DNA of 59,621 nt from a phage. This document shows, one piece after another, positions 4,477 to 30,951 of the stretch. The notes below the pieces were generated by a model that saw only the letters and a list, made by a program, of their open reading frames with translations, was not told the origin of the DNA and ran no database searches. The translations under genes were made by a program, and so were the position numbers. Position 1 is the first letter of the stretch; each line of letters begins with the position of its first letter. The stretch is taken from the sequence record PZ049713.1. The stretch is one strand, 5' to 3'.

Positions 4477-7467
4477 TCCACTGCCTCCAATGCCTTAGCC
4501 GGGTAAATCTGCACGCTGTTGCGATGGGCGCTGCTCTCGACTGCGTAGCCCTCTGGTGTCAGTTCCGTGGAGTAGGTGCCGCAGATATGGCCTTCCCACT
4601 CGCTGCCGGTGGACTTCTTCACGAGGTCGCCCATGCGGAACTTGCCTTGCGGGGCGGTCTGCGCGGAGCGGGTGAGTGACGCCGCGATGCGTTCGTGCTG
4701 GGCGACGGTCATATACTCCCCGTCGTCATCATCGGTCATATACGCCTCAACCTCAGAGGCGCGCCCGCAATGCGGCACGCTGGTCATCGGGCTGAACCGC
4801 TCCACCGCCTCCCGCTCATCCTGCGCCGGGCTGGCTCGTCGCCCTCCAGCTCTGCCGCTAGCTCGGGATTGCACACTGAGCAACCATCGCCAACCGTGCG
4901 CTCTCGCATCGTGCAGCGGCATTCCGACTCGGCCTGCTGGGATAGGGCGTCCTGATCCGTCCAGCCAGCGTGATCATGGAAAGGTGCAGGCCGCAGCCAT
5001 CGCCGTAGTGTTCGGCTTGGCAATCGACCACCTGCTGCGACGACCCGCGCATCGCTTCGTTCTCCGCCTTCGCAGCCCCCAGCTCAGCGCCGATTCGCCC
5101 GGCTACCTTCAGTGTGTCGTTCATTGCTCAATCTCCTTGATTGTGGCCAGCGGCAGCCCGCTCATTGCCAGCGGCTCGTCGTAGCAGACGCCCATCATCT
5201 CGGGCCATTTACGCGGCTCGCCCGGGTTTGATGGCGCCCTGGTATATGCCGGTCCCATGCCAGCCGATGCCGGATGACCTCGATACAAGTCCCACGCAAT
5301 GCCATCCTCGCGGCGCTTCGTGGCCTCCGGCATCAGTGTGCAGCCAGGCGCTGGATCTCGTGCCGCGTGGCGTGGACCTGCTCCCAGTCGCGCCGGTCGT
5401 AGAACCCGGCAGCCGCTCAATGGCGTGATCTGATCTGGCCGATCTTGATGCGTGCCAGTAGCTCACAGGCCTCTTGCAGCTCGGCGGCCTGGCGCTCGAG
5501 TTACGTGTGATGGTGTAGGTGCGCATTGGCGCCTCCTCGGCGGCTCCGGTGGGCGGCAGCGGAAACAGGGCGCATGGCCGATCCGCTTCCGTCTGTGCGG
5601 CAGAAGATTGGTGCGTTCACAGCGGCAGCGACCTGCACCGCAAGGCATTCGGCCTCGCCGTGGGGTGATGCAAGCCGATTCACTCGATCGCGCCACTCGT
5701 CCATCGACTCCCTGTGTCAGGGTGGCGGCCCGGCTTGTGGCATTCGGGCTGGAGAGGGCAGGCGCTGCAGCTGCTGCGGGACTTGAAGTTGTAGTGCTGG
5801 CGGCAGAGGGCCTTGGCGGTGTCGGATAGCTGGGTCACGGAGCAGATCCTTCGTAGCGGCTCACGCGGCGCAATGCGCGGCTCGACGTCGATGAACCGGA
5901 GCCTCGGAAGTCGCCATCGGTAGCGCGGCGACTGTCCACCTCAAGGCGCGCCGTGGCGTTAACCTCGGCCGCGACCTCGGCTACAGCCTTCGCTTGTCTC
6001 AATCGAGTAGGCTGCCGGCCAGCACGCCCTCCATCGTCTTGCCGAGGCATGGCGCGCAGATCACTGAGGTTGTTCATGGTGCTCTCCAGTTTGTCGAGCT
6101 TCCGCTCGAACCAGCCGAGCGTTATGGCTGCCTGGCGACCCTCGGGCGGATAGCGTTCGATTGAGTTGCGGCGCATGTCTTGTGCGGGTGACTAGCTCGA
6201 GGTTGTCGATTCCAGATGTTGGCGGGGTTGCGATCCTTGAAGACGAGGAAGTGCCCAGCCGGCACTGGGCCGCTGTGCCTTCCCACAACATCACGTGGAC
6301 CGGGCGCCAGTCAGTGCGCTTGTTGCCGGTGTCCGCCACCTTGCGGTAGAGGATGCCGCCCTTGTCGGTGCGCTCCGCTCCGATGGGGCGCCAGGTGTTC
6401 GATGGTCGGTGACCCAGCTTGAACTGCGTGTCCTTGGCCCGGCCTCCTGCCTGCCATCCTTTGCGGCCAGAGTTCCATGTCTGGTGGCCAGGCTTGAACC
6501 TGCCGCAGCCTGTGATTTCCTTGAACTCATCCGGTCGCGTTAGCTCCGAGTTTCGACACGCGATCGTGAATCGAGCCAGTGCCGCGCCCCATCAAGGCTG
6601 CTATCTCGGTGATGGGGCTTGGTGGCATAACAGTTCTGCCAGTGTTGCTGTCCTCTGCCGGCGTCCAGTGCCGGTATTCCGTGCGCCTCCTGCCGGCCAG
6701 TGGGCTCATTTCTTCCGTCTCCCGTGCGTTGTGGCTGTCCAGCCCGGCGCTGGCTACTTGGTTGCCGTGGTCAGCTATCAGGCTGTCGATCAGGGCGCCC
6801 ATGTAGGCGACTAGGCCAGTGACTGTTTCACCACGGGCCATCGCGCTGTGGGTGTGCTTCTCGCCGTTGGGCAGCACGAACCACGCGCTGGCGTTCCAGC
6901 TCGGAAGGGCGCCGAGGCTCAGTGCCGCGAACTACTGGCCGCGACACTCGGTTGTCGATTGAATAGAGCGTCACGATGCAGCTCATGGCTGGCACACCTC
7001 CAGCAGTGCCGCGTCGCTCAGATCACCAAGCGGCGCAGCGATGTATTGAGCAAGCGCGTAGACGCCCCACGGCTTGCCAGCGATTTCCGCCCGGTACGCC
7101 GCGTGACGGATGGCGTCGAGCACGTCGGGGAATCTCATGGCCACTCCTGCCGCAGCACGTCGTTCTGCTTGGCCTGCGGAGTGCCGCGCTTGCGCAGAGG
7201 GAGGCTGTTCGATACGGCAGAGTTGCGGGCGCCACGCTTGCGGCTGCGCTGGTCCGCCTCCGCGTTTCCGGCGTTGTTGAAGACGGCAGGCTTGATCTCT
7301 ATCGGCTTGCCGATGCTGTCGGGCAGCAGCTGGATCTTTCCGCCAGCGCTCAGGAATGCAGCCGGGCCGCGTCATCTGCGCGCGCGGAGCCTCGCCCTGC
7401 GCGACGGCATGGTTGTCGATGAGCGTGGGTGCGTACCGGGGAGGGGGCGGTGGCGCCGGGTGGATCA

Positions 7468-7603
7468 GATCAGCAGCAAGGGCAGCCGCAGCAACAGCGT
7501 CAAGGCCAGCCACAACGCAGCCAGCAGGCGGCGCCTCCAGCCTATGATGACGATGTGCCATTCGCCAACCCCTACTGCGGCGCCCGCTCGCTGCTGATCT
7601 GAT
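7468..7603 (+). other. 3' fragment of the 58480-58818 gene, truncated at the inversion junction
   Basis: 7468 onward is collinear with 58684 onward (Gln-rich C-terminus ...DQQQGQPQQQRQ...); sequence immediately upstream of 7468 is inverted-copy DNA. Confidence 0.8.
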
Positions 7604-7646
7604 CCACCCCGGGCGCCCAGCGCGCCCTCCTCCCCGGTACACACCC

Positions 7647-7940
7647 ATGCTCATAGACAACCATGCCATAGCGCAGGGCGAGGCTCTGCGCGCGCAAATT
7701 GACGCGGCCACGGCTGCATTCCTGAACGCTGGCGGAAAGATCCAGCTGCTGCCCGACAGCATCGGCAAGCCGATAGAGATCAAGCCTGCCGTCTTCAACA
7801 ACGCCGGAAACGCGGAGGCGGACCAGCGCAGCCGCAAGCGTGGCGCCCGCAACTCTGCCGTATCGAACAGCCTCCCTCTGCGCAAGCGCGGCACTCCGCA
7901 GGCCAAGCAGAACGACGTGCTGCGGCAGGAGTGGCCATGA
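7647..7940 (+). CDS. Hypothetical early protein
   Basis: 97-aa ORF; identical copy at 58863-59156; stop overlaps next start (ATGA). Confidence 0.45.
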   Translation: MLIDNHAIAQGEALRAQIDAATAAFLNAGGKIQLLPDSIGKPIEIKPAVFNNAGNAEADQRSRKRGARNSAVSNSLPLRKRGTPQAKQNDVLRQEWP

Positions 7941-8092
7941 GATTCCCCGACGTGCTCGACGCCATCCGTCACGCGGCGTACCGGGCGGAAATCACTGGCA
8001 AGCCGTGGGGCGTCTACGCGCTTGCTCAATACATCGCTGCGCCGCTTGGTGATCTGAGCGACGCGGCACTGCTGGAGGTGTGCCAGCCATGA
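7937..8092 (+). CDS. Hypothetical small protein (51 aa)
   Basis: Not in ORF track (below 60 aa); ATG 7937 overlaps upstream stop, TGA 8090-8092 overlaps next ATG; reads MRFPDVLDAIRHAAYRAEITGKPWGVYALAQYIAAPLGDLSDAALLEVCQP. Confidence 0.4.
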   Translation: MRFPDVLDAIRHAAYRAEITGKPWGVYALAQYIAAPLGDLSDAALLEVCQP

Positions 8093-8367
8093 GCTGCATC
8101 GTGACGCTCTATTCAATCGACAACCGAGTGTCGCGGCCAGTAGTTCGCGGCACTGAGCCTCGGCGCCCTTCCGACTGGAACGCCAGCGCGTGGTTCGTGC
8201 TGCCCAACGGCGAGAAGCACACCCACAGCGCGATGGCCCGTGGTGAAACAGTCACTGGCCTAGTCGCCTACATGGGCGCCCTGATCGACAGCCTGATAGC
8301 TGACCACGGCAACCAAGTAGCCAGCGCCGGCTGGACGGCCACAACGCACGGGAGACGGAAGAAATGA
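8089..8367 (+). CDS. Hypothetical early protein
   Basis: ORF-track frame 8080-8367; ATG at 8089 overlaps upstream stop. Confidence 0.4.
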   Translation: MSCIVTLYSIDNRVSRPVVRGTEPRRPSDWNASAWFVLPNGEKHTHSAMARGETVTGLVAYMGALIDSLIADHGNQVASAGWTATTHGRRKK

Positions 8368-9011
8368 GCCCACTGGCCGGCAGGAGGCGCACGGAATACC
8401 GGCACTGGACGCCGGCAGAGGACGCAACACTGGCAGAACTGTATGCCACCAAGCCCATCACCGAGATAGCAGCCTTGATGGGGCGCGGCACTGGCTCGAT
8501 TCACAATCGCGTGTCGAAACTCGGACTGACGCGACCGGATGAGTTCAAGGAAATCACAGGCTGCGGCAGGTTCAAGCCTGGCCACCAGACATGGAACTCT
8601 GGCCGCAAAGGATGGCAGGCAGGAGGCCGGGCCAAGGACACGCAGTTCAAGCTGGGTCACCGACCATCGAACACCTGGCGCCCCATCGGAGCGGAGCGCA
8701 CCGACAAGGGCGGCATCCTCTACCGCAAGGTGGCGGACACCGGCAACAAGCGCACTGACTGGCGCCCGGTCCACGTGATGTTGTGGGAAGAGCACAGCGG
8801 CCCAGTGCCGGCTGGGCACTTCCTCGTCTTCAAGGATCGCAACCCCGCCAACATCTCAATCGACAACCTCGAGCTAGTCACCCGCGCAGAGAACATGCGC
8901 CGCAACTCAATCGAACGCTATCCGCCCGAGTATCGCCAGGCAGCCATAACGCTCGGCTGGTTCAAGCGGAAGCTCAACAAACTGGAGCAGCACCATGAAC
9001 AACCTCAGTGA
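8364..9011 (+). CDS. HNH endonuclease (HNH_3-like) with N-terminal Myb/SANT-like HTH
   Basis: 215 aa; C-terminal ...HFLVFKDRNPANISIDNLELVTRAEN... resembles the HNH_3 core. Confidence 0.6.
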   Translation: MSPLAGRRRTEYRHWTPAEDATLAELYATKPITEIAALMGRGTGSIHNRVSKLGLTRPDEFKEITGCGRFKPGHQTWNSGRKGWQAGGRAKDTQFKLGHRPSNTWRPIGAERTDKGGILYRKVADTGNKRTDWRPVHVMLWEEHSGPVPAGHFLVFKDRNPANISIDNLELVTRAENMRRNSIERYPPEYRQAAITLGWFKRKLNKLEQHHEQPQ

Positions 9012-9234
9012 TCTGCGCGCCATCCTCGGCAAGACGATGGAGGGCGTGCTGGCCGGCACCTACTCGATTGAACAAGCGAAGGCTGTAGCCCAGGTCGCGG
9101 CCGAAGTTAACGCCACGGCGCGCCTTGAGGTGGACATGGCCCGCGCTACCGATGGCGACTTCCGAGGCTCCGGTTTCATCGACGTCGAGCCGCGCATTGC
9201 GCCGCGTGAGCCGCTACGGAGGATTGCTCCGTGA
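8995..9234 (+). CDS. Hypothetical early protein
   Basis: 79-aa ORF in operon orientation. Confidence 0.35.
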   Translation: MNNLSDLRAILGKTMEGVLAGTYSIEQAKAVAQVAAEVNATARLEVDMARATDGDFRGSGFIDVEPRIAPREPLRRIAP

Positions 9235-9452
9235 CCGAGCTATCCGACACCGCCAAGGCCATCTGCGCCCAGCACTACAACTTCAAGTCCCGCAGCAGCT
9301 GCAACGCCTGCCCTCTCCAGCCCGAATGCCACAAGCCGGCCGCCACCCTGACACAGGAGTCGATGGACGAGTGGCGCGATCGAGTGAATCGGCTTGCATT
9401 ACCCCACGGCGAGGCCGAATGCCTTGCGGTGCAGGAGTCGCTGCCGCTGTGA
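9231..9452 (+). CDS. Hypothetical Cys-rich small protein
   Basis: 73 aa; GTG start overlapping upstream stop; CNACPLQPEC motif. Confidence 0.35.
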   Translation: MTELSDTAKAICAQHYNFKSRSSCNACPLQPECHKPAATLTQESMDEWRDRVNRLALPHGEAECLAVQESLPL

Positions 9453-9543
9453 ACGCACCAATCTTCTGCCGCACAGACGGAAAGCGGATCGGCCAATGCG
9501 CCTGTTTCCGCTGCCGCCCACCGGAGCCGCCCAAGGAGGCGCC

Positions 9544-9948
9544 ATGCGCACCTACACCATCACCGTAACCGAGCGCCAGGCCGCCGAGCTGCAAGAGGCC
9601 TGTGAGCTACTGGCACGCATCAAGATCGGCCAGATCGATCACGCCATTGAGCGGCTGCCGGGCTTCTACGACCGGCGCGACTGGGAGCAGGTCCACGCCA
9701 CGCGGCACGAGATCCAGCGCCTGGCTAACACACTGATGCCGGAGGCCACGAAGCGCCGCGAGGATGGCATTGCGTGGGACTTGTATCAGGTCATCCGGCA
9801 TCGGCTGGCATGGGACCGGGCATATGACCAGGGCGCCATCAAACCCGGCGAGCCGCGTAAATGGCCCGAGATGATGGGCGTCTGCTACGACGAGCCGCTG
9901 GCAATGAGCGGGCTGCCGCTGGCCACAATCAAGGAGATTGAGCAATGA
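9544..9948 (+). CDS. Hypothetical early protein
   Basis: ATG at 9544 preceded by AAGGAGG; in frame with ORF-track 9394-9948. Confidence 0.45.
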   Translation: MRTYTITVTERQAAELQEACELLARIKIGQIDHAIERLPGFYDRRDWEQVHATRHEIQRLANTLMPEATKRREDGIAWDLYQVIRHRLAWDRAYDQGAIKPGEPRKWPEMMGVCYDEPLAMSGLPLATIKEIEQ

Positions 9949-10598
9949 ACGACACACTGAAGGTAGCCGGGCGAATCGGCGCTGAGCTGGGGGCTGCGAA
10001 GGCGGAGAACGAAGCGATGCGCGGGTTGTTGCAGCAGGTGGTCGATTGCCAAGCCGAACACTACGGCGATGGCTGCGGCCTGCACCTTTCCATGATCACG
10101 CTGGCTGGACGGATTAAGGACGCCCTATCCCAGCAGGCCGAGTCGGAATGCCGCTGCACGATGCGAGAGCGCACGGTTGGCGATGGTTGCTCAGTGTGCA
10201 ATCCCGAGCTAGCGGCAGAGCTGGAGGGCGACGAGCCAGCCCCGGCGCAGGATGAGCGGGAGGCGGTGGAGCGGTTCAGCCCGATGACCAGCGTGCCGCA
10301 TTGCGGGCGCGCCTCTGAGGTTGAGGCGTATATGACCGATGATGACGACGGGGAGTATATGACCGTCGCCCAGCACGAACGCATCGCGGCGTCACTCACC
10401 CGCTCCGCGCAGACCGCCCCGCAAGGCAAGTTCCGCATGGGCGACCTCGTGAAGAAGTCCACCGGCAGCGAGTGGGAAGGCCATATCTGCGGCACCTACT
10501 CCACGGAACTGACACCAGAGGGCTACGCAGTCGAGAGCAGCGCCCATCGCAACAGCGTGCAGATTTACCCGGCTAAGGCATTGGAGGCAGTGGAATGA
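9945..10598 (+). CDS. Hypothetical protein, Cys-rich
   Basis: 217 aa; ATGA overlap with upstream gene. Confidence 0.45.
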   Translation: MNDTLKVAGRIGAELGAAKAENEAMRGLLQQVVDCQAEHYGDGCGLHLSMITLAGRIKDALSQQAESECRCTMRERTVGDGCSVCNPELAAELEGDEPAPAQDEREAVERFSPMTSVPHCGRASEVEAYMTDDDDGEYMTVAQHERIAASLTRSAQTAPQGKFRMGDLVKKSTGSEWEGHICGTYSTELTPEGYAVESSAHRNSVQIYPAKALEAVE

Positions 10599-11263
10599 GC
10601 AAGGTATTGGTTGATCGGGAGCTGTTGGACAGCGCGGCGACATGGCTTGAGGTGCACGCGCCAGGTGGTGGCTGCGTTGAAGGTTCGGTGGCGGAAGATT
10701 TGCGCGCCATTCTTGAACAGCCCGCAGAGGCGGAAGGGGTCGAGGTGGTGGCTTGGCAGCAACGATACATTTGCCCAGACGAAGGCCCGAGCTGTTGGCA
10801 ATCCGCTGATGAGCGGACCTTGGAAATACTTCGGCGTCGCGATGACTATGAGCTTCGCCAGCTGGTCCCGCTAACCGCCCTATCAGCCGTGACCGCCGAG
10901 CGGGATAGGCTGCTGGAGGAAGTGACAGAGCTGGACGCTCTGCGCGATAAGCTGTCGGGCCTACTGAGCAAGACAGCAGTGGCACTCCGAGGGCCTGAGC
11001 CGGAGCTTACTCGGTACGGATATGCCGACATACCGCTACGTGTAAAGACGGTCATTGACGAGCGCGAACAACTGATCGATGGCATGAACAGAATCATGCG
11101 GGCAACACGGCTTGGCGATGACGCATTCGCAATTGCGTGCGAGGTTGTCGGGGAGCTGAATGGCGCCGCCATGGCTGCGAAGGAGGCCGAGCCTGAACAC
11201 GTCTGCTCGGGCTGTGGAGCGAAAGGCTGGACCGGCAACTGCTTAGAGTGCATTCCGTACTAA
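10595..11263 (+). CDS. Hypothetical protein with C-terminal CxxC...CxxC
   Basis: 222 aa; ATGA overlap with upstream gene. Confidence 0.45.
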   Translation: MSKVLVDRELLDSAATWLEVHAPGGGCVEGSVAEDLRAILEQPAEAEGVEVVAWQQRYICPDEGPSCWQSADERTLEILRRRDDYELRQLVPLTALSAVTAERDRLLEEVTELDALRDKLSGLLSKTAVALRGPEPELTRYGYADIPLRVKTVIDEREQLIDGMNRIMRATRLGDDAFAIACEVVGELNGAAMAAKEAEPEHVCSGCGAKGWTGNCLECIPY

Positions 11264-11538
11264 CCCCCCCTAACCCCACCCAAACCCACAGTCTGCCGGC
11301 GAGAGTCGGCGGGGAGGATTTGCTCGTGCCTGTAATTCCATTCATGCGACCCGTTACCGAGCCGCCGCCTGCCGGTAAGCCGATTCAGCTTTTCCTTAAA
11401 GACGGCAGGACGCGCGCAGCCACAACCTCATTAGTCTTCATGGGAAATGAGTGCTTCTTCATGTGGTACGACGCCCAAACACGCAAGTCGATAGCCGTCG
11501 ACAAGATCAAAGGATGGGCGCCGGCTCAGCTCGCCTAA
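11248..11538 (+). CDS. Hypothetical protein (start uncertain)
   Basis: ORF-track frame; GTG at 11248 or ATG at 11344, neither with a clear SD. Confidence 0.3.
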   Translation: MHSVLTPPNPTQTHSLPARVGGEDLLVPVIPFMRPVTEPPPAGKPIQLFLKDGRTRAATTSLVFMGNECFFMWYDAQTRKSIAVDKIKGWAPAQLA

Positions 11539-11562
11539 CCCCACACGCAGCAGGAGATAGAC

Positions 11563-12279
11563 ATGCCCGAACTCATCAAGCGGTTCGCCAAGAACACGGC
11601 GGGCCGTGACTTTGCCGTGGGCGACATTCACGGATGCTTTACGAAGCTGCAGCAGGCGCTCGACGGGATCGGCTTTGACCCGGCAGTCGATCGTCTGTTC
11701 TCGGTTGGCGATCTGGTTGATCGCGGCCCTGAATGTGACATGGCGCTGGAGTGGCTGGCAAAGCCCTGGTTCCACCCGGTGCGCGGCAACCACGACGACT
11801 ACGTGTGCCGGTACGACAGCTGCGAGCTGGGCAACTGGCTCATCAACGGCGGCGGCTGGTTCCTGTCGCTCAACAGCGACGAGCAGGCAGAGTACGCCGT
11901 CCAGTTCCGTGAGCTGCCGATCGCCATTGAACTGGAGACGGACGCAGGGCTAGTTGGCATCGTGCACGCCGACTGCCCATTTCCGACATGGGCTCAGACG
12001 GTCGCCGAGCTGACCGCGCCGGAATCACCGAAGCGCCTGAAACTGGTCAAGAACAGCTGTATGTGGTCGCGCACTCGAATCGAGATGGTCGACACAAGCG
12101 GGATACCGGACCTGCTCGCGCTTGTGGTCGGCCATACCCCGCTGCGCACGCCAGCAATCCTCGGCAACGTCGTTCACATCGACACTGTCGGCTGGCGGGA
12201 TGAAGGCTATTTCACGCTGACGGACTTGAACACGCTGCCTGAAGTTATCGAAGCAGCCAGCGTAACGGTGAGGGGGTGA
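11563..12279 (+). CDS. Ser/Thr protein phosphatase (calcineurin-like metallophosphatase)
   Basis: 238 aa; motifs GDIHG, GDLVDRG, GNHD in canonical order. Confidence 0.8.
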   Translation: MPELIKRFAKNTAGRDFAVGDIHGCFTKLQQALDGIGFDPAVDRLFSVGDLVDRGPECDMALEWLAKPWFHPVRGNHDDYVCRYDSCELGNWLINGGGWFLSLNSDEQAEYAVQFRELPIAIELETDAGLVGIVHADCPFPTWAQTVAELTAPESPKRLKLVKNSCMWSRTRIEMVDTSGIPDLLALVVGHTPLRTPAILGNVVHIDTVGWRDEGYFTLTDLNTLPEVIEAASVTVRG

Positions 12280-12282
12280 GGG

Positions 12283-12630
12283 ATGGGCGCAGAGAAACTA
12301 GAGAATCTGCCGGAGTGGTTCCCCGACAAGGTGACTGAGCAGCAGATGGCCATGATACTTGGCACAACCGATCGAGCCCTAGAAGGCAGGCGAAGCCGGA
12401 ACCAGATTCCCGAGGGCGTCTGGAATCGCATCAATGGACGAATCTACTACAGCCGATCAAGGTACGAAGAATGGCAAGAAAGCCTATGGCACTGCCCACC
12501 GGAGTTGAGCTACGCAACGATACGATCCGCATCCGATTTAGCTGGAACGGAAAGCGATGCTCAGAAACCCTCGCCCTCCCCCCGACGCAAGCGGGCATTG
12601 CCGCTGCATCCCGTCTACGCGATCAAGTAG
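12283..12630 (+). CDS. xis: Excisionase-like DNA-binding protein (3' end uncertain, overlaps int)
   Basis: N-terminal ~65 aa (...VTEQQMAMILGTTDRALEGRRSRNQIPEGVWNRINGRIYYSRSRYEEW) resembles excisionase-family HTH proteins; immediately upstream of int. Confidence 0.5.
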   Translation: MGAEKLENLPEWFPDKVTEQQMAMILGTTDRALEGRRSRNQIPEGVWNRINGRIYYSRSRYEEWQESLWHCPPELSYATIRSASDLAGTESDAQKPSPSPRRKRALPLHPVYAIK

Positions 12631-13652
12631 TCCAGCAGATCAAGCACGGCATCTTCGACGAGCGTAAGTATGCCGAGCTCTTCCCGGGCTCGCCGAACGC
12701 CATATCGAGCGTTTCGCGCGGGTTCGGCCAGTACGCCCAGGTCTGGCTCGACAGCCGATCGATCTCGGAAGGCACGCGCGACAACTACAAGTCAGTGCTC
12801 AATGTCTGGTGGATGCCGTACCTGGCCACAACTCTCCTTCCCAACCTGACGACCGCCTTCATGCGCGAGCTAGTCGTTCAAATCCCATGGACCTCGGACG
12901 GCGTGAAGGCGAACGCCATGAACAAGCTGAGCACCATTCTCGAGTCGGCGGTTTCGGACAGGCTCCTGACGGAGAACCCAATTCAGGCGCTGGACATACC
13001 GACGCGGACGGAAGCGAAGGTCGACCCGTTCACGCAGGATGAGGCGGACAGGATCATTGCCAGGCTCTACGAAACGGAGCACTGGCCCAGCCAGATATAC
13101 GCTGCGTTCTTCGAGTTCGCTTTCTATACCGGCATGCGGTTAGGAGAGATCGCTGCCCTTCGCTGGGAAGAGGTCGATTTGAAGAGGCGTACGGTCCACG
13201 TCTGCAGGTCCGTAGCAAAGAAGAAGGTCGTCGAGCGGACGAAGACCAAGAAGGAAAGGTTTGTGCTGCTGAATGATCGGGCAGTGCATGCCCTTCTGTT
13301 CGCCAAGCAGTACGCCGAGCGGCGCGCGGCCGGCAGCGGGCGGCTGACAGATTTTCCGTTCTGCTTCCCGCCAAGCAAAAACTCTCAGTTCGTGCAGCAG
13401 ACAAGCGACCTGCATCACCAGTGGCGACCGACGCTAAAGGCGCTGGGTATTCGCTACCGGCCCCCGTACAATGCGCGCCACACCTACGCAACCATGTGCC
13501 TGATGGCCGGAATGACACCGGCATTCATCGCCAAGCAGCTCGGCCATTCGATACAGATTCTGCTGTCTCGGTATGCCCGCTGGATCGACGGCGAAGGCGA
13601 TTGGGCTGAGATGCGCAAATTGCAGTTTGCCCCAAAAGTGCCCCAAGCGTAG
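12471..13652 (+). CDS. int: Tyrosine-type phage integrase
   Basis: 393 aa; C-terminal catalytic region with ...ARHTYATMCLMAG...LGHSIQILLSRYARW... (R, H-x-x-R, Y). Confidence 0.9.
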   Translation: MARKPMALPTGVELRNDTIRIRFSWNGKRCSETLALPPTQAGIAAASRLRDQVVQQIKHGIFDERKYAELFPGSPNAISSVSRGFGQYAQVWLDSRSISEGTRDNYKSVLNVWWMPYLATTLLPNLTTAFMRELVVQIPWTSDGVKANAMNKLSTILESAVSDRLLTENPIQALDIPTRTEAKVDPFTQDEADRIIARLYETEHWPSQIYAAFFEFAFYTGMRLGEIAALRWEEVDLKRRTVHVCRSVAKKKVVERTKTKKERFVLLNDRAVHALLFAKQYAERRAAGSGRLTDFPFCFPPSKNSQFVQQTSDLHHQWRPTLKALGIRYRPPYNARHTYATMCLMAGMTPAFIAKQLGHSIQILLSRYARWIDGEGDWAEMRKLQFAPKVPQA

Positions 13653-13851
13653 CACTACACCTCTGAAACCCGCGAGATAAAGCCTCTTGATTTCTACCGC
13701 CAACATCACCATGCAGTTCTAATGGGGGTTTTGGCGGGGTATGCTCCCCGTATTTACTGGGCTGCATGCCCTCACGGGCCCTCGAAAAACCGTACCCTGC
13801 CCCAAAAATTGCCCCGAGATTTGCCCCCTATCTCAGCCCGTCCGGGCAATC

Positions 13852-14367
13852 TCAATTCCCCCTCACCGCGTCATAAGCTTTCTCACACGCCGACCCAGCT
13901 ATTCCTCGGTCATCGGCGACAGCAGCATAGAGTTGAGCAGCCGTTCCAATCCGGCCGAACAAGTCGGCTCGCACTCTGGCGGCGTCCTCGGCTGCCTGGC
14001 TGAGCTGGGCAGTGATGGCATTGCCGGCGTCACGACTGCGCTGCTCAGATGCTGCGAGGCGCAACTTGAGCCGCTCAAGAGCACTACCAGCGCGCTCAGC
14101 ATCGCTACGCGCCGCAGCCAGTTGTTCCTGTGCCTCTGCATCTGCTTTCTCCGTCGCGGCCTGGCGCCGCTGGTTTTCCTGAATGACGAACAGCGCAGCG
14201 CGGCGGTCGCGCTCGCTGACTTCGGTGCGGTAGGAGGCCAGATCGGCCTGCGCCTGCGCGGCGTCAGACTGCGCCGATAGCACCCGGATCTGCTGCCCGC
14301 CGGCCACGGCAGCCAGAGCCAGCACCCACCAGGCCCAGCTGGGCACGAACTTCAGCCAGGCGGTCAT
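13852..14367 (-). CDS. Rz-like i-spanin
   Basis: 171 aa; N-terminal TM (WAWWVLALAAVAGG) followed by Ala/Gln/Arg-rich coiled coil; embedded +1-frame ORF; adjacent to endolysin. Confidence 0.6.
   Translation of the reverse strand: MTAWLKFVPSWAWWVLALAAVAGGQQIRVLSAQSDAAQAQADLASYRTEVSERDRRAALFVIQENQRRQAATEKADAEAQEQLAAARSDAERAGSALERLKLRLAASEQRSRDAGNAITAQLSQAAEDAARVRADLFGRIGTAAQLYAAVADDRGIAGSACEKAYDAVRGN
13899..14102 (-). CDS. Rz1-like o-spanin embedded in Rz
   Basis: Alternative-frame ORF: MLSALVVLLSGSSC signal/lipobox-like start then Pro-rich stretch ending ...PPECEP; the lipobox is not canonical. Confidence 0.4.
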   Translation of the reverse strand: MLSALVVLLSGSSCASQHLSSAVVTPAMPSLPSSARQPRTPPECEPTCSAGLERLLNSMLLSPMTEE

Positions 14368-14843
14368 CGCATCACCTCACGCACGGCCGCGGCGAATCGG
14401 GCTGGCCAGCGATCCGGATGCGGTTTTCCAGGGCGCCATGTACGCAGGTACAGATCCCAGCCGCCCGCAGCGTCATGCTCGCCTGGCAGAGGCTTCGGGT
14501 CAGTCCATAGCAAAAGCCGGCCGAAGGCGAACGCCAGCACGTCGTCACGCTCGAGCGCAGCCCACACGGCGGCAGGCTCAGGCGCAACACCTCGAGCAGC
14601 ACACACTCGACGGGCGTGGTCGCGGCTCGAAGGGTGGCTCAGCACACCACGCACACCACCGCCCTGCTCGAACTGAAGCAGCCCGCGGGCCGGCCCGGTC
14701 GGCCACTGGCGGCGCCGCTGTTCCGGATCTTCCTGCTGAGTAATAGCAAGCAGCATGATCTCTGCCTCTCGGCTCGACATTCGCGCAGGCAGCAGCGCGA
14801 GAGCGGGCGCTATGGCGCGCTCCCGTATTTCAGAGAGGGTCAT
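14364..14843 (-). CDS. Endolysin candidate (lytic transglycosylase / SLT-like)
   Basis: ATG at 14843 (MTLSEIRERAIAPALALL...); SLT-like ...LLAITQQEDPEQ... region; ATGA overlap with Rz. Confidence 0.5.
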   Translation of the reverse strand: MTLSEIRERAIAPALALLPARMSSREAEIMLLAITQQEDPEQRRRQWPTGPARGLLQFEQGGGVRGVLSHPSSRDHARRVCAARGVAPEPAAVWAALERDDVLAFAFGRLLLWTDPKPLPGEHDAAGGWDLYLRTWRPGKPHPDRWPARFAAAVREVMR

Positions 14844-14985
14844 GGGTAATCCTTCAGACGAAAAAAAACCCGACTGGCGGGACGTAAACGAATGTCTCAA
14901 TCGGGTGGTGATAGTCGCCCCATTCGGGCATAATCCACGACTTCCTGAGCAGCGACTCTTTAGCTGTTATTACAAGGATGGGTAT

Positions 14986-16146
14986 ATGAGAAGCGCGTCA
15001 GGCATCTTTCTATTCGTGCTGTTCCCAGGATATTTCTTTTATCACATCGCATATAGCTTGGGCATGGTTCCTTATATTGGAATCTTCACAATCACTCTAG
15101 CCATTGCGTGTGGCTACTTCCTAATTAAGCTATTTATTGGACTTCTGAGAAATCCTTACCCGATAGTGTCATTTGCAGATGCATGCTTTGTTCTGTTAAT
15201 AATCACGCTGTCTGCAATTACCATCGTGAACCACACGCTTAATGACGGTGCGTATATCGATACGGACGGACTTGTGTTTAGCGCATCAATCATCGTATCG
15301 ATGACTGGGCTTTATTTTTTAGGGAGAAATATAGTTCTGGAGCAGCAAAAGAAATCGACGCTTGCAGCGCTGGCTTTACTAGCCGGATACCTCGCATGCG
15401 CGATAATTTTCTATCAAGAAAACGGCGGCTATATGCTGCTCCCCACTCCGAGCGAATCGGCGCCGGAGCCCTCAAATTATCAGGGCCTTGCCCGCTCGGT
15501 TATGTACTCGCTGATTTTCACTTTGCCCTTTATCAAGTCTGGGCTCATGAGATTCGTCTACGCTGCAGCCAGCCTAGCCTGCTTGTATTTGATCGGTTCA
15601 AGAACGGACTTCGCACTTTGCGCTATGGTGTTCCTGGTTTCGATGCTGATAAGGTCAAGCATTAGAGGCGCAGTTATGGCATATGGATTGATGATACTCG
15701 CCTTACCAGCCGCGCTTTATTTTCTCTACCAGTCCGACAGATTCGCGATCAGCTCCACCGACCCGTCACTTGTTGCGCGTGGAATATTCACCGAATCATC
15801 AATAGACGGAATTTCGGGTTCACCTATCCTTGGTGATTACCTCGGGCAGGTTAGAGACTTCGGCGACATTGGAAGTTACGCGCACAACGCTCTTTCCATG
15901 TACCAGCAATTCGGACTAATACCGTTCATTGCTTACATTGCATTCATTATTTTTAGCTTATTGATCGCAATCAAGTCTCTCGCTATAAATCGTCGATCTC
16001 CATACACAGAGCTTCTGCTGCATCTTTCCGTCGTTGCGCTGGCCGGGGTCTTGGTGGCGAAGTCAATACTCTGGACGACCCCAGTACTGGCCTGGGGTCT
16101 TGCGGTGAGCATAAGGAGAAATCGCTACGCTTGTATTAGGCCGTAA
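14986..16146 (+). CDS. Polytopic membrane protein, Wzy-like (O-antigen polymerase/ligase family)
   Basis: 386 aa from ATG 14986 with AAGGA SD; many hydrophobic helices; markedly AT-richer than flanks; between lysis genes and tailspike. Confidence 0.5.
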   Translation: MRSASGIFLFVLFPGYFFYHIAYSLGMVPYIGIFTITLAIACGYFLIKLFIGLLRNPYPIVSFADACFVLLIITLSAITIVNHTLNDGAYIDTDGLVFSASIIVSMTGLYFLGRNIVLEQQKKSTLAALALLAGYLACAIIFYQENGGYMLLPTPSESAPEPSNYQGLARSVMYSLIFTLPFIKSGLMRFVYAAASLACLYLIGSRTDFALCAMVFLVSMLIRSSIRGAVMAYGLMILALPAALYFLYQSDRFAISSTDPSLVARGIFTESSIDGISGSPILGDYLGQVRDFGDIGSYAHNALSMYQQFGLIPFIAYIAFIIFSLLIAIKSLAINRRSPYTELLLHLSVVALAGVLVAKSILWTTPVLAWGLAVSIRRNRYACIRP

Positions 16147-18182
16147 CCCTTCCATGATCCAGGCGAGCCCGCTACCACGCAAACCCAGCCGCTGTACTGG
16201 CCTGCGGACGGATATCTATTAACTACTCTGTCGCCGGAGTTCCATGTGCCGGTTGTAGGTATGGCTGTGCCGAACCATTCCTTACCGAAGTTGCCCGCTT
16301 GGAGGGTTTCGTAAAGGTACAGGACACCCCCTACAAATTGATTGTCAGCATAATATCGAAGCGGCTCGGCAGGGTTCTTAAAGCGCATTGCAGTTACACG
16401 GAAGCCACTCACAGTATTGCGCGCCACTGACATTGTTGACTGAGTGCCCGATTCGATGAATATGCCGTGCTCCATGAGCGTGGCGTTACCGCGAATGGTA
16501 TTCCCAGTGATTTCTTTCTCTGACCCTGCGGTGATATGAATACCCAAGCCAGCACCGATGCCGCCTGCACGCCCAACATCCTCCAGCTTGTTATTGCTTA
16601 TCTTTGCACCTACACCGTTTGCGTCGAAAATGCCTTGATACTGGGTTTGGCGAATACTGTTCCCGGTCGCAACTAGGTTCGAATACTGATCAAAATAAAG
16701 GCCGGAACGACCCACTACGGCGACAGAGTTGCCTGTAACGTTGGCGTCGGCCGCATACCGAACCGCAATACCATCTTGACCAACGTTAGCAATCGTATTG
16801 CCCGTAATGGACAAGACCTTGCAGCGCATAGGAGTAGCCGTTGGCCCGGTGTTGATAACCTGAATACCGTCACCACCAGACACACCGCTGATCGTGTTAC
16901 CCGTGATTGAAACCGAACCGCTGTTGCCGCCGCCAGCGTCATAATTTTGAACTTTCAGACCTGACGCAACGGTGTTGCGGATAGTGTTACCAGTAATCGA
17001 AAGCCCAAAAATGCCCGTGTCGCAGTACAAGCCATGCTCGGTAACGATGTCGTGTATCACGTTGCCAGTGACGGTCACATTCTCTGAAAGCTGCCCGATG
17101 ATTCCGCCAGACGCTGTTCCCGATATTCTATTACCAAACACATTTATGTTTTTGCCAACCAGGGTGAAGCCTGTTGTGTTTCTGTAGTTGGGGTCGTTCA
17201 GTACCGCGGCACCCGGACCATGAACAACGTTGTACGCGAAGGTCGCACCGTCGACAGGGAGGTTTGTCATCACCGGCGAATATCGGAAATCACGGAAGAC
17301 GTTACCGATAATTTGCAGATTGATCGCTTCGGAGCCGCTGACCCCGATAGCTTGCGATGCTGGGCTATTTACATAGGTCGCCTCGTCGGCACCAATCAAC
17401 TCCAAACCGGTCACGGTTACATCAGACAGGCCATCAGCATCGAACAGTACCGTTTGCACCGCCGTTTGCCGGATCACTGCATGCCGCCCTGACAGATAAT
17501 GGCCAGACCTTAGCTGGAGCTTCCCATTGACCAGGTAATGATCACTCGCGTCACCGAAATCGACGTATAAGCCTGCATTCAGCGCAGCTTGGATTGCCAC
17601 CGTATCATCAGTAACCCCGTCCGCTACCGCGCCGTAAGAACGAGGGCGCACCGTCTTGTCGCTTTCTAGTATTTCAGCGACGGTCCGCGTACCCAGTCGT
17701 ACAAGACTAGCGCCTTCCGCTGCCGCCAACTCCTGCCGCAGCACGTCATCCCCAAGCAGCACGAGGCTGGCAGAGTCAGTCGCCCAAGTGCCAGTGAGCT
17801 CCAGAGGAAGCGTAGCGTCAGGGCCGGGCCGGTAGAGGCCTGCGGTCGTACCGGTAGTGGCCGCATTGACTGCAACGTACTCGTTCCGCTCCTCCAGTAC
17901 GACATTGGCCGCATAGTCGCCCTTGCTCACATAGCCGGAAGACACGAGAAACGCCTGGAACCGGCTCTCCTTATCGGCCTGACTCAGTGTGAACGCGGTT
18001 TCGCGGCCTTCCTGCGCATTGTTGAAGCTGTTTTCCATGCCGGACCACGACTCGCGCAGCTTGCCCAGTCGGTCGGCATAGAACGGATCTGCGCCGTTGA
18101 CCAGCTTGTCGAGGTTCTCGGCGTTGTCGTACAGGTCGCGCGGATCGGTGGACGGGACGTTGTTGCCGGTATTGAATGTCAT
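16125..18182 (-). CDS. Tailspike protein with right-handed beta-helix (depolymerase-like)
   Basis: 685 aa; repeated ...TGNTI/TGNV... strands (VTVTGNVI, SITGNTIRN, SITGNTISG, ITGNTIAN, VTGNSVAV, ATGNSIRQ, ITGNTIRG); last gene of the tail operon. Confidence 0.7.
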   Translation of the reverse strand: MTFNTGNNVPSTDPRDLYDNAENLDKLVNGADPFYADRLGKLRESWSGMENSFNNAQEGRETAFTLSQADKESRFQAFLVSSGYVSKGDYAANVVLEERNEYVAVNAATTGTTAGLYRPGPDATLPLELTGTWATDSASLVLLGDDVLRQELAAAEGASLVRLGTRTVAEILESDKTVRPRSYGAVADGVTDDTVAIQAALNAGLYVDFGDASDHYLVNGKLQLRSGHYLSGRHAVIRQTAVQTVLFDADGLSDVTVTGLELIGADEATYVNSPASQAIGVSGSEAINLQIIGNVFRDFRYSPVMTNLPVDGATFAYNVVHGPGAAVLNDPNYRNTTGFTLVGKNINVFGNRISGTASGGIIGQLSENVTVTGNVIHDIVTEHGLYCDTGIFGLSITGNTIRNTVASGLKVQNYDAGGGNSGSVSITGNTISGVSGGDGIQVINTGPTATPMRCKVLSITGNTIANVGQDGIAVRYAADANVTGNSVAVVGRSGLYFDQYSNLVATGNSIRQTQYQGIFDANGVGAKISNNKLEDVGRAGGIGAGLGIHITAGSEKEITGNTIRGNATLMEHGIFIESGTQSTMSVARNTVSGFRVTAMRFKNPAEPLRYYADNQFVGGVLYLYETLQAGNFGKEWFGTAIPTTGTWNSGDRVVNRYPSAGQYSGWVCVVAGSPGSWKGYGLIQA

Positions 18183-18255
18183 GCGTTTACTCCAGGCGTG
18201 AAAATCCGCACGGCGTCCTTGCGGGCCGTGTCCGGTATGTGGTGTTGGCTAGTGG

Positions 18256-20958
18256 TTAGGCGGGTGGCGTTGCGTCGTCGTAGGCGTAGACTTCTGGCGC
18301 GTAGTTGACTGCCTCTACTGACGCCCCATCTGTGCCGTTCGGGCTGATTGACGTGATCAGTGCCGGATAGCTCCAGCGGTTGACCGGCCCGAACAAGAGG
18401 TGCGGCGGTTCGATGCTCCACGAGGTGTCGGGCTCAAAGTCCAAGCCGGTGATCGACAGCCGATACTCATCGATGCGCGTCGCGGCGTATGGCCCAGAGA
18501 GCGTGCCATCAGGACGGCGAATACCGACCACATGCGCGCCACCGGCTGACCAGTCGAACGGCTCGGATGACTCGATGATGCCGCTGTCGTAGCTCAGCAT
18601 CAGCGCGCTCTGGCCGTAGCCCGGCACGTCGTCGGCCACATGGCAGAACGACATAAACCCCGAATTCAGCGCATCCAGCTCGGTCGCCCAGCGATACGCC
18701 CAGCGCCTATGTTTGTGCGCCATCCGCTGCCGCATCCCGAGGCGCCAAGCGCGCGTCCTGCTAGTGATGCCCTCTGCCGTAAGCTTCTCGACCTTGCGCC
18801 CGATATCGCCCGGCAGGCGGCACTCAACGGTCTCCACCGCCCAGGTGTTTTCGTCGACGTATTCCACATCCACGCCGTCGAAGTCGTCCGGGCCTACGGC
18901 GGAGAAGTCGCGCTCCAGCTCTTCTGTCATGTTCTGCGGCGTGTACAAGTCGGTTTTCGGCGCGAAGGTCTGCTGTGGCGTGTCGCGCGGCTCATCACGA
19001 GCAGCAGACAAGCGCCCGCGCTCGATAGTCAGGTCGGCAAAGCCGGCTTTTAGCGCATGGCCGATGATCTGCTTGACCGTGGACGCGGACTCGTAGGCCA
19101 TGTCAAAGCGGTCGCCGCGCTGCGCCCATAGGGCTCCGAGGCGATCCAGTTCGGCGAAATCCAGGTCGTCATCGGTATAGCCGATGGATCGTGCAACGTA
19201 GGCCACGAACGGCACGATATCGCGCGTCGGCGTCTCGACATCCCATGCGCCGTCACCTGTTCGAACAGGCAGCACGCGCGTGACCTCAGCGGAAATCAGC
19301 TGCTCTGACTGTGCGGCCAAGCGGTTGCCGCCCTTGACGCGCACGGCCATCACCGTGACGCCCTCGTATGCGGTCGGCGCCTGCAACTTGGCGCGCAGCC
19401 CGTACCACTCCACGCCATCAATGATCTGCGTGCTGTCGGATTTCGCGCCGATGCGCCTCAGCCGCACTTCGGGCCGCATCATGCTCGGCAGCGTCAGCGA
19501 TTCGGTGTAGCCGAGCTGGTCGACCTGCGCGCCGCTGTAGCTCTTGGTGATCGACGTCCAGGCGCCCGCCAGCGCGGCGTCGCGATACTGCATCTCCACG
19601 GTCACGGTAATCGAGAATTTGCGGCCCTTCTTATCGACGCCGCACAGGCCGCCGGGGAACATCACGTCCCACTCGATATGGCTGGCCACCTCGTTCGGCG
19701 GGCAGGCCATGAACGGCCCGGTCCAGTCGCCCTCCTGCGTGGATGCGTCGAGGCTGATCGAGGCGTCGGCACTGTTGAAGTCATCGAATCCCGGCCATGC
19801 GACCGGATCAGGCGCGCCGGTATCGGTCAGGCGCTCAACCGATATGGCCGATATGCCGGCCGCAACGATGCGATAGCGTAGGCCCGCATAGCCCACGCTC
19901 AGGCTCGCAGGGCCAGCCGGCAGCGCCGTAACGGGCGAGCCATTTAGGTAGTTCAGTGTGAGCTGGTCAGGCGCGCCTGGCGTGTAGCTGTGCACGACGA
20001 ACGAGCCGGCATAGTCGCCAGCCACCTCAATGACCATGCCCGCAAACGGCGCCATCCAAGCGAAGCTTCCTTCGATGATGTCTCGATCCGCCCCGCCGTC
20101 GATGACGGTAAAAGGTCGCGGAGCCTCGATGCGGACGATCATGCCCGGCGCCCATCCGGCTGGGAACGAGCCGGCACCGGACGGGATAGTGATGGTGTCG
20201 CCGCTGAAGATGTAGCTGGTTGCCGTAGGTTCTGGGTCGACGGCGTAGGTTGCCGTCAACTCCAGGCCTGCGGAGCCGGTCGAGGTAGCGCCCACTTCGT
20301 CAGCCGAGTGCCACCACTCTGCCGCAGCCTCGCCGGCCAGCGATTGGCCGGGCTGGTAGATCGAATATTCCGCATCGCTGCCGAGGGAAATCAGCGGAGT
20401 ATCGCCGACCAGGATGCGGCTGGCCGGGATTTCGAATTTGCCCTTGCCGATGCACAGCAACATTTCCACCCACTGATCGCGCGGGGCCGAGAAGAAGCGA
20501 TGCGGCGGCAACAGGTAATCGGGGTACACACGCCGCTTGCCTGCAACCTCTCGAATTGGGTCGTTGATTCGGACCTTGTTGCCCTTGGCCGAGGCCTCGT
20601 TGAGCGCATCGCCACGCCCCACTCCGCCGCCGCCTTTCGTCTGCGGCTTGGGCATCATCGAGACGACGAGCACCGCGGCCGCCACTGCGACGGCCGCATA
20701 GACGAGCATCGCGGTCGCGCTGATCGGCTCTTTCGGCTCAGGCGTGATATCCACCACATCGTCCGGCGCGATGACGAAGCTATCCCACTCCCCGGACGGC
20801 ACCAGGGCGCCATTCACCTCGAAGCTGATCGGGTGAACGTCGCGCTCGCTGTATGACGGGACGTTCGCGCGCAGCCAGGCGCCGATGGTCATCGCCGAGC
20901 CGATGTGATGCGTCTCCAGCGGCTCACCTTGGAGCTTGGACGGATAAATCCGAATCAT
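18256..20958 (-). CDS. Tail tip / host-specificity protein (lambda I/J-like)
   Basis: 900 aa; position after the NlpC/P60 tail protein and before the tailspike; N-terminal hydrophobic segment as in gpI-like proteins. Confidence 0.6.
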   Translation of the reverse strand: MIRIYPSKLQGEPLETHHIGSAMTIGAWLRANVPSYSERDVHPISFEVNGALVPSGEWDSFVIAPDDVVDITPEPKEPISATAMLVYAAVAVAAAVLVVSMMPKPQTKGGGGVGRGDALNEASAKGNKVRINDPIREVAGKRRVYPDYLLPPHRFFSAPRDQWVEMLLCIGKGKFEIPASRILVGDTPLISLGSDAEYSIYQPGQSLAGEAAAEWWHSADEVGATSTGSAGLELTATYAVDPEPTATSYIFSGDTITIPSGAGSFPAGWAPGMIVRIEAPRPFTVIDGGADRDIIEGSFAWMAPFAGMVIEVAGDYAGSFVVHSYTPGAPDQLTLNYLNGSPVTALPAGPASLSVGYAGLRYRIVAAGISAISVERLTDTGAPDPVAWPGFDDFNSADASISLDASTQEGDWTGPFMACPPNEVASHIEWDVMFPGGLCGVDKKGRKFSITVTVEMQYRDAALAGAWTSITKSYSGAQVDQLGYTESLTLPSMMRPEVRLRRIGAKSDSTQIIDGVEWYGLRAKLQAPTAYEGVTVMAVRVKGGNRLAAQSEQLISAEVTRVLPVRTGDGAWDVETPTRDIVPFVAYVARSIGYTDDDLDFAELDRLGALWAQRGDRFDMAYESASTVKQIIGHALKAGFADLTIERGRLSAARDEPRDTPQQTFAPKTDLYTPQNMTEELERDFSAVGPDDFDGVDVEYVDENTWAVETVECRLPGDIGRKVEKLTAEGITSRTRAWRLGMRQRMAHKHRRWAYRWATELDALNSGFMSFCHVADDVPGYGQSALMLSYDSGIIESSEPFDWSAGGAHVVGIRRPDGTLSGPYAATRIDEYRLSITGLDFEPDTSWSIEPPHLLFGPVNRWSYPALITSISPNGTDGASVEAVNYAPEVYAYDDATPPA

Positions 20959-30898: not shown

Positions 30899-30951
30899 TC
30901 TAGAAATGGAAAACCCGGCGCGGGCCGGGTCTGGTGTCCTGTTCTGGCGGT

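Follow-up and report, generated by a model that had tools for sequence, protein, structure and literature searches.

The late region of phage lambda runs from the nin genes and the Q gene through a terminator-containing leader to the holin, terminase, head and tail genes; holin, endolysin (R) and spanin genes form one contiguous cassette in which Rz1 is embedded in Rz, and the single long late transcript has to ignore internal terminators. Serotype-converting genes stand beside tailspike genes in D3 (wzy-beta/iap), epsilon15, Sf6 (oac) and P22 (gtrABC). In VarioGold, a tailspike gene, a lysis module and a reverse gene of the O-antigen-ligase family are found together (PMC9658991). For AlpA of Pseudomonas aeruginosa, processive antitermination has been demonstrated in a lysis operon of prophage origin (alpBCDE), where a terminator lies just upstream of a holin-like gene (PMC7969949); the structure of AlpA resembles that of Q21 (structure 7XYA; PMC9371919). 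Here we examine positions 13,852 to 16,146 of a 59,621-nucleotide (nt) stretch of phage DNA (record PZ049713.1; this whole stretch is called the window), where an endolysin gene and the spanin genes Rz and Rz1 lie next to the integrase gene int and are separated from the tail genes by a reverse-oriented gene for a Wzy-like membrane protein. What the window holds is a lambdoid siphophage (Pseudomonas/Stutzerimonas), temperate and of the PS-1 type, with a genome of about 51.2 kb that is present in the circular (attP) form.

We consider it fairly probable that a late transcript dependent on antitermination ends with the endolysin and spanin genes of this phage, after crossing the Wzy-like gene in antisense. 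A preliminary description of the locus had put the endolysin and Rz/Rz1 on the minus strand, some 23 kb away from holin-like open reading frames (ORFs); its coordinates for the lysis genes proved exact or correct within a few bases (Table 1), and the distance to the holin-like ORFs (37580-38106), which share their strand and are upstream of them, is 22.7 kb. All late genes from 38462 down to 13852 are on the minus strand, the Wzy-like gene excepted. As terminators occur both in the late leader and within the operon while the late genes share one strand, the region bears the signature of a terminator-resistant polymerase reading the late operon. The three late leader and operon terminators are alike in sequence (…GCCTCGCC…GCGGGGCTTTTTCGTTT).

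In the mechanism that we propose, the late operon would occupy the minus strand between about 38.5 kb and 13.85 kb, opening with a holin module (a 104-amino acid (aa) protein and a 71-aa DUF7940 protein), continuing with the packaging, head and tail genes and ending with the endolysin and Rz/Rz1 beside attP. The distal module would begin at a hairpin/T-run terminator joined to a strong ribosome-binding site (GGAG), and only a polymerase that ignores terminators would reach the endolysin. This would most likely be transcription from the late promoter, modified by the product of the gene at the Q position (39036-39581), which is AlpA/Q-like in appearance. A low-GC cassette consisting of the receptor-binding part of the tailspike and the reverse Wzy_C-family gene would have recombined between the tail fibre and the terminator. 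The Wzy-like gene would presumably be an O-antigen-modifying lysogenic-conversion gene matched to the tailspike receptor, and after induction late transcription would read antisense through it.

The gene of the candidate regulator immediately follows the nin-like genes and precedes the leader. This is the position expected of an antitermination regulator, immediately upstream of the late promoter and of a leader that contains terminators. PS-1, psageK9, D3, F10 and JBD44 have homologs in this place, and the protein is annotated as hypothetical in D3 (orf84), F10, PMG1, JBD44, PS-1 and psageK9. It has no Pfam match. The best match of a 21-sequence profile against PDB was AlpA (7xya_G), over nearly the full length at a marginal E-value of 0.032, and hhalign placed the region of the invariant residues T143 and W147 on the DNA-recognition helix of AlpA (55% probability, E 1.2e-4, 42 C-terminal residues). 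The arrangement resembles that of the Alp system, where a small regulator gene is likewise found directly upstream of a promoter, a terminator and holin-like genes, and the helix-turn-helix regions at the C-terminus align; however, that system is a remnant domesticated in the chromosome and controls a short operon, compared with a 25-kb virion operon in the window, and the similarity is marginal. The phage also follows lambda in the order of nin-like genes, Q-position gene, leader, holin, terminase, head and tail genes, in the Rz1 embedded in Rz and, as we read it, in a single long late transcript that would have to ignore internal terminators. It departs from lambda in that the endolysin and Rz/Rz1 lie away from the holin, at the distal end of the operon (the position of the lambda 'b-region' by attP), and in that its putative antiterminator shares no sequence relationship with lambda Q and is weakly similar to AlpA.

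Table 1. Features of the window discussed in the text, with positions in the window
Feature	Position	Strand	Description
Endolysin, 159 aa	14364-14843	minus	predicted divergent lysozyme-like/SLT-like muralytic enzyme; phrog_3108
Rz-type i-spanin, 171 aa	13852-14367	minus	PF10721 (DUF2514), E 7e-13; phrog_312 'Rz-like spanin', E 1e-23
Rz1-type o-spanin, 80 aa	13899-14141	minus	inside Rz, +1 frame; phrog_11621 'Rz-like spanin', E 6.5e-13
Decayed intrinsic terminator	14861-14881	minus	4-bp stem CCCG/CGGG, loop CCAGT, T8; then endolysin Shine-Dalgarno sequence, 14850-14855
Divergent intergenic region, Wzy-like start to terminator	14882-14985		GC 0.49; conserved with L091
Wzy_C/O-antigen-ligase-superfamily membrane protein, 386 aa	14986-16146	plus	about 9-10 predicted transmembrane segments; low-GC moron
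Tailspike, 685 aa	16125-18182	minus	Beta_helix E 1e-26, NosD; conserved N-terminal anchor and exchanged beta-helix receptor-binding part
Late-operon leader, 573 nt	38463-39035	minus	two hairpin/T-run terminators, ~38797-38765 and 38544-38524
Strong internal terminator, 10-bp stem	30876-30901	minus	inside the late operon
Q-position gene, 181 aa	39036-39581	minus	phrog_3412; candidate AlpA/Q-like processive antiterminator
Holin candidate, 71 aa	37580-37795	minus	two transmembrane domains (16-34, 39-57), charged C-terminus, DUF7940
Coiled-coil protein, 104 aa	37792-38106	minus	one C-terminal transmembrane domain (81-99); phrog_31408; weak 'hemolysin' phrog matches
Tyrosine integrase	12471-13652	plus	Phage_integrase, Arm-DNA-bind_2; convergent with Rz
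attP region	13653-13851		homology break against the integrated relative L091 at ~13825
Inverted, error-rich second copy of 7575-15083	1-7491	plus	frameshifted lysis genes, endolysin ATG at 243

The junction in front of the endolysin provides the second line of evidence. The weak hairpin followed by U8 that had been described just upstream of the endolysin Shine-Dalgarno (SD) sequence is present: in minus-strand reading, its stem arms occupy 14878-14881 and 14869-14872 and the T-run 14861-14868, ahead of the SD GAAGGA and the ATG at 14843. The interval from T-run to ATG is 17 nt, SD included, and this short distance implies that every endolysin transcript starts upstream and passes the terminator. 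Taken alone, the hairpin is no better than chance, as the minimum free energy (MFE) fold chooses otherwise (z -0.72), and an automated terminator scan misses it. Comparison with relatives, through which alone it becomes significant, identifies it as a conserved junction of intrinsic terminator and SD that has decayed in the window. Strong hairpins with T-runs stand at the homologous position in PS-1 (GCCCCG-CAAGT-CGGGGC-T6), in the close relative L091 (GCCCGC-TGCGT-GCGGGC-T6), in L004 (CCGCCC-TAG-GGGCGG-T6) and in L006 (CCCGC-CGAGT-GCGGG-T6), each followed by ...GCCTGGAG...ATG; L003 also has such an element there.

This comparison was extended to 85 loci of the endolysin family, including 77 usable of 80 genome loci together with the window, PS-1, L003, L004, L006 and L008. 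Hairpins were detected sequence by sequence and compared with shuffled upstream regions, since a MAFFT alignment shifts register between stems. The canonical hairpin with its T-run occurs in 27 of the 85 loci, where it ends 19-28 nt ahead of the start codon, against about 1% of shuffles, and the stems vary among loci (CCCCG, CCCGC, CCGCC, GGCCGC). In this terminator class, the upstream ORF on the same strand is a long tail-fibre gene free of transmembrane domains (TMDs) that ends just before the hairpin, in most cases 46-64 nt before the ATG, or else a reverse-strand insert lies upstream. None of the other 58 loci has the junction, and about 48 of them carry a same-strand ORF with 1-3 predicted TMDs that abuts or overlaps the endolysin start and that, to judge from its sequence and place, is the adjacent holin. 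The junction also precedes unrelated endolysins (GH19 in psageK9, Hydrolase_2 in L093 and, in degenerate form, GH19 in L094), which brings the endolysin families found behind it to at least three unrelated ones (phrog_3108, GH19, Hydrolase_2). Consequently, the element goes with a position, where the distal lysis module begins, rather than with any single endolysin family. Sites of the hairpin/T-run/GCCTGGAGAAA-ATG junction lie at ~11300-11361 in L102 (psageK9), ~3277-3330 in L093, ~6810-6850 in L094 and ~4960-5000 in L101.

The protein encoded behind this junction had been called an SLT-type endolysin. This designation holds at the level of fold and motif, but no sequence model places the 159-aa protein in this group: it has no Pfam match (E<=0.01), no NCBIfam match and no PDB-sequence match even when a 25-sequence profile is used, and its sole family match is phrog_3108, of 'unknown function'. 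An AlphaFold model built on 25 homologs (pLDDT 94.6) predicts the lysozyme-like alpha-helical fold of SLT/family-1 enzymes. The family alignment contains an invariant LQE(S/D)...GPARGxxQFE that resembles the ES and GLMQ motifs of family-1 lytic transglycosylases; E38 is invariant (ES in many members, ED in the window protein) and G54-L-x-Q57-F58 is GLxQ-like. Family 1 lytic transglycosylases and the SLT domain (MltE, Slt70, phiKZ gp144) are among the closest known systems. In the loci of relatives that were examined, genes of the endolysin family always have Rz/Rz1 next downstream, and the predicted identity rests on structure, motif and this gene context. The protein has no hydrophobic segment (maximum KD19 0.84), which implies that it is cytoplasmic and requires a holin. 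A signal-arrest-release endolysin, exported independently of a holin, was ruled out on the same value and because the N-terminal helix belongs to the globular fold. The GC content (GC) of the gene is 0.67, against 0.60 for the genome.

The endolysin family comprises about 2800 relatives, including proteins from Burkholderiales and Litunavirus (vB_Pae575P-3, L100 2438-2962). In the 2010 description of LIT1, LUZ7 and PEV2, no muralytic enzyme was predictable (PMC3715699), and the phrog_3108 family appears to be the endolysin missed in these phages. Some newer records label members 'lysozyme', and no experimental characterisation of the family was found in the literature. An endolysin 96% identical to that of the window, together with a DUF7940 homolog (P0148), occurs in L012 (NZ_JBLXCL010000015), a metagenome-assembled genome of an alphaproteobacterial 'Pelagibacterium sp.'; this is probably a mis-binned Stutzerimonas/Pseudomonas phage contig.

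Downstream, the stop codon of the endolysin and the start codon of Rz overlap in ATGA (14364-14367). Rz has a hydrophobic N-terminus (WAWWVLALAAVAGG; KD17 1.56) and combines the N-terminal TMD with the coiled-coil periplasmic domain (DUF2514/phrog_312) of i-spanins. Rz1 has a signal-like MLSALVVLLSGSSC followed by a Pro-rich mature part; the signal-like segment ends in ...LLSGSSC, which differs from the canonical lipobox L-[AS]-[GA]-C, and the homologue of the gene in L003 matches PF28595 (RzoQ). Endolysin, Rz and embedded Rz1 thus have the lambda-type order, but the cassette is not contiguous with a holin, the candidate for which lies 22.7 kb upstream.

At the start of the late operon, the 71-aa ORF is a credible holin by annotation, architecture and position. 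It matches phrog_1356 'holin' (E 1.9e-19) and PF25612 (DUF7940, 54.4 bits), is homologous to PS-1 gp45, annotated 'holin', and would fit class II holins in being small, with two TMDs and a charged C-terminus (...SQPKVTGEPK). When it was compared with phage genomes by tblastn, PS-1 was the sole match, and we know of no experimentally shown holin within its family. The 104-aa ORF is translationally coupled to it and possibly encodes a holin partner or regulator of XhlA-like architecture; a 105-aa gene is kept upstream of DUF7940 in L096, L098 and L099. The preliminary description had named two results that would count against it, a holin gene next to the endolysin and ORFs at 37580-38106 that are not holins. 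When every ORF of 25 aa or more in 13600-16200 was scanned for hydrophobic segments on either strand, no holin-like ORF was found to adjoin the endolysin, and the match to phrog_1356 speaks for a holin at the operon start. The hydrophobic ORFs in this interval are Rz, Rz1, the Wzy-like gene and two antisense ORFs, a spurious one inside Rz and one of 45 aa inside the Wzy-like gene (15156-15293), and an adjacent holin was ruled out on this basis.

The separation of holin and endolysin genes, which had been presented as an oddity, recurs in relatives. PS-1 (NC_029066/AP014684) has gp44 (104 aa), gp45 ('holin') and gp46 upstream of the terminase, and gp78, whose product is 95.6% identical to the window endolysin, begins 48 nt behind the tail fibre and is followed by gp79 (Rz), with which late operon and genome end. 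In psageK9, of the phiPSA1 group, NinG, the Q-position homolog, small coiled-coil/membrane genes and the terminase are followed at the other end by the tail fibre, a GH19 endolysin, a DUF2514 Rz and int. As PS-1 and the phiPSA1/psageK9 group share this layout, the split is ordinary for the lineage. The holin-only module also recurs in the more distant lambdoid contigs L096, L098 and L099, where a 105-aa gene, a 73-77-aa gene and DUF7940 lie between the NinG/Q-position gene and the terminase with no endolysin nearby. PS-1 shares the genome plan of the window, with 81-95% nucleotide identity in patches, and its Rz is the last late gene, next to int across the genome ends. The window differs from it by the Wzy-like gene, a different C-terminal part of the tail fibre and a terminator stem of 4 bp against 8 bp, while PS-1 alone carries other reverse-strand inserts (HNH gp76 and gp66). 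We found no paper describing the lysis genes of PS-1. Two large HNH/endonuclease VII-like genes of the window (36471-37205 and 39581-40816, minus) stand on either side of the late-operon start; the small terminase subunit has one of them immediately upstream, the Q-position gene the other, and the PS-1 HNH genes lie elsewhere.

Two routes of transcription had been proposed for the lysis genes, a promoter of their own or read-through antisense to the Wzy-like gene, and the latter is now the better supported. A consensus scan found no sigma-70-like promoter in 14844-14985, and a promoter there is disfavoured because it would sit upstream of the hairpin and T-run, 17 nt from the ATG. The distal lysis module might instead have its own late or middle promoter within 14882-16146 (minus strand), perhaps brought in by the low-GC cassette and independent of the 23-kb late transcript, and this we regard as unlikely. 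The AT-rich insert does offer a sigma-70-like match inside the Wzy-like gene (15974-15946, minus), transcripts started upstream would pass the degenerate hairpin of the window, and in L091 an insertion sequence (IS) element on the same strand separates the Wzy-like gene from the endolysin without obvious loss of the module. However, this match is the only one in the 4.9 kb of 13500-18400, below the shuffle expectation of 3.2, and the terminator is the sole upstream element conserved across the 27 loci. Moreover, the tail-fibre stop of insert-free PS-1 lies about 10 nt from the hairpin, leaving no room for a dedicated promoter, and any transcript of this kind must still read through the T-run. 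It is less likely still that the hairpin and T-run are an ordinary 3' terminator or mRNA stabiliser of the tail fibre, with partial read-through lowering downstream expression and no dedicated antiterminator involved. Intrinsic terminators are seldom 100% efficient, the similarity to AlpA is weak, and the tail-fibre ORF ends just before the hairpin in most loci of the terminator class. Such an arrangement would nevertheless have to cope with the two leader terminators and the 10-bp-stem terminator 16 kb upstream, which without antitermination would let little transcription arrive even at the capsid genes, and the junction stays with the lysis module rather than with the tail-fibre gene when a reverse moron separates them (window, L003, L004, L091).

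A different objection concerns the holin, for the ORFs at 37580-38106 may not serve this endolysin at all and may be, for example, superinfection-exclusion or other membrane proteins, with the true holin elsewhere or another release route in use. The Pfam label of the 71-aa protein is DUF7940, of unknown function, DUF7940 lies beside terminase genes and never beside an endolysin in every context examined, and the endolysin relatives in Burkholderiales and Litunavirus use unrelated adjacent TMD proteins. We nonetheless think it improbable, as the 71-aa ORF combines the size, the two TMDs, the charged C-terminus and the phrog_1356 match (E 2e-19) of a holin with the position of lambda S, after the Q-position gene and a terminator-containing leader. 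In addition, no other TMD ORF lies beside the lysis genes, and an endolysin without export signal requires some holin.

Several points weigh against distal lysis genes served by an antiterminated late transcript. The promoter scan covered sigma-70-type sites only, and a non-canonical or phage-factor-dependent promoter in 14882-16146 could escape it. The similarity of the Q-position protein to AlpA is marginal (E 0.032; hhalign 55% over 42 residues), and a single-sequence AlphaFold model of this protein is unusable (pLDDT 40.6). DUF7940 is formally a family of unknown function with the PHROG 'holin' label being an annotation, and no DUF7940 gene lies beside an endolysin in the contexts examined. 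The window terminator is the weakest of all copies, with a 4-bp stem that is not in the MFE fold, and may no longer gate anything. Neither promoter nor terminator was detected for the Wzy-like gene. Finally, antitermination and read-through, like the holin function and the seroconversion discussed below, are deduced from sequence.

The gene that the late transcript would cross lies, as previously described, on the plus strand between the lysis and tail genes and is AT-rich, with a GC of 0.475, compared with 0.49 in its 5' intergenic region, 0.53 in the receptor-binding part of the tailspike and 0.60 in the genome. It had been called convergent with the lysis genes, which is the wrong geometry: the lysis genes are divergent from it, with 5' ends facing, whereas it converges on the tailspike gene (their 3' ends overlap by 22 nt, 16125-16146) and Rz converges on int. 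Its true start is the ATG at 14986, with the SD AAGGA. The protein scores 19 bits (E 0.0012) against Wzy_C (PF04932), for which the curated cut-off is 31.7, and all 8 members of its tiny family (8 homologs in 5.8e9 proteins) match Wzy_C, the best at E 6.1e-9. Its 9-10 or so hydrophobic segments are those of a polytopic inner-membrane protein of the Wzy_C/O-antigen ligase superfamily.

Every context of this family that was examined is a phage in which the gene is reverse-oriented between the tailspike or tail fibre and the endolysin and spanins. L091/L092 are of the same phage type (98% identity to the window protein), whereas L094/L095 (37%) combine a myovirus-like tail with a GH19 endolysin, a DUF2514 Rz and int, and L093 (37%) a Mu-like tail with a Hydrolase_2 endolysin. 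The gene is missing from PS-1, where tail fibre and endolysin stand 48 nt apart, and in L004, an Ectopseudomonas mendocina prophage, this slot is taken by a reverse Acyl_transf_3+SGNH gene (Oac-like), in L003 by a 112-aa reverse gene. Lying between genes that are adjacent in relatives and deviating in GC from the genome, the Wzy-like gene is by sequence comparison a moron in an insertion hotspot, but the promoter and terminator of its own that mark morons are wanting: there is no consensus promoter upstream, and its 3' end has no terminator. The divergent intergenic region in front of it is presumed to hold its promoter. In L091, an IS630-family (DDE_3) element inserted at a TA lies on the strand of the lysis genes between the start of the Wzy-like gene and the endolysin terminator (8902-9939; L092 30-1067).

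By analogy with serotype-converting morons, the Wzy-like gene is presumably O-antigen-modifying and a candidate seroconversion gene. Like them, it is a low-GC membrane protein gene of O-antigen-modifying type between tail(spike) genes and attP/int, alongside a beta-helix tailspike. Unlike them, it sits between the tailspike and the lysis module, such that late transcription must cross it antisense, and it belongs to a family of 8 members whose activity, as polymerase, ligase or other, is only predicted. The tailspike matches PS-1 only in the region 17725-18253. The receptor-binding part of the tailspike belongs to the low-GC block as well, which suggests that the phage may have gained its specificity for a receptor together with the means to modify it.

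The proximity of the lysis genes to int carries less weight than the preliminary description gave it. Homology between the window and the integrated L091 stops at 13825, 27 nt past the Rz stop, which implies that the adjacency of int and Rz is that of the attP form and that the integrated prophage has Rz and int at opposite ends; in L091 the spanin gene is the last of the prophage and adjoins host DNA. No tRNA was found anywhere in the window, att included. The beginning of the window is an inverted second copy, frameshifted, of the region that contains the locus, which itself lies in the good copy. The two copies (1-7491 and 7575-15083) are 98.4% identical over 7533 columns, with 137 differences that are mostly 1-nt indels and C/T changes, and the palindrome is centred at ~7491-7575, inside the early-left operon and not at att; the inverted copy is probably a fold-back assembly artefact (long-read or multiple displacement amplification). 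A direct repeat of 924 nt (7468-8391 = 58684-59607, 99.9% identity) indicates a unit genome of about 51.2 kb (7468-58683), circular or concatemeric. The ORFs 33349-34860 (503 aa) and 34692-35978 (large terminase, 428 aa against 494 aa in PS-1), both minus, overlap by 169 nt, which may be a start-codon artefact of the ORF listing or an assembly indel error. An Rfam scan returned only the Proteo-phage-1 sRNA (RF03044; 54390-54469 plus, 70.2 bits, E 1e-10), in the early-left region and unrelated to the lysis locus.

A broader, tentative hypothesis, which we hold to be possible but rather doubtful, is that the hairpin/T-run/GCCTGGAG-ATG element is a portable antiterminator-controlled gate and a recombination hotspot for the distal lysis modules of Pseudomonas-type temperate phages. 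As a gate, it would make endolysin and spanin expression strictly dependent on the AlpA-family antiterminator that also controls the promoter-proximal holin. As a hotspot, it would have exchange on both sides, of endolysin modules downstream and of conversion genes matched to the receptor (Wzy-like, Oac-like) upstream.

The arrangement in the window is one that is normal in an already described lineage of phages, together with a conventional insertion of a conversion gene, and it leaves current models of phage lysis and late-gene control standing. Its value lies mainly in annotation and prophage biology. Across this large prophage group (Pseudomonas, Stutzerimonas, Azotobacter), the gene to take as the endolysin is the 159-aa one behind the tail fibre (phrog_3108), which lacks annotation, not a gene near the holin. 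The junction of terminator and ribosome-binding site is a landmark for the start of the distal lysis module and for the insertion of cargo, and the Wzy-like gene and its tailspike are a candidate seroconversion-plus-receptor cassette.

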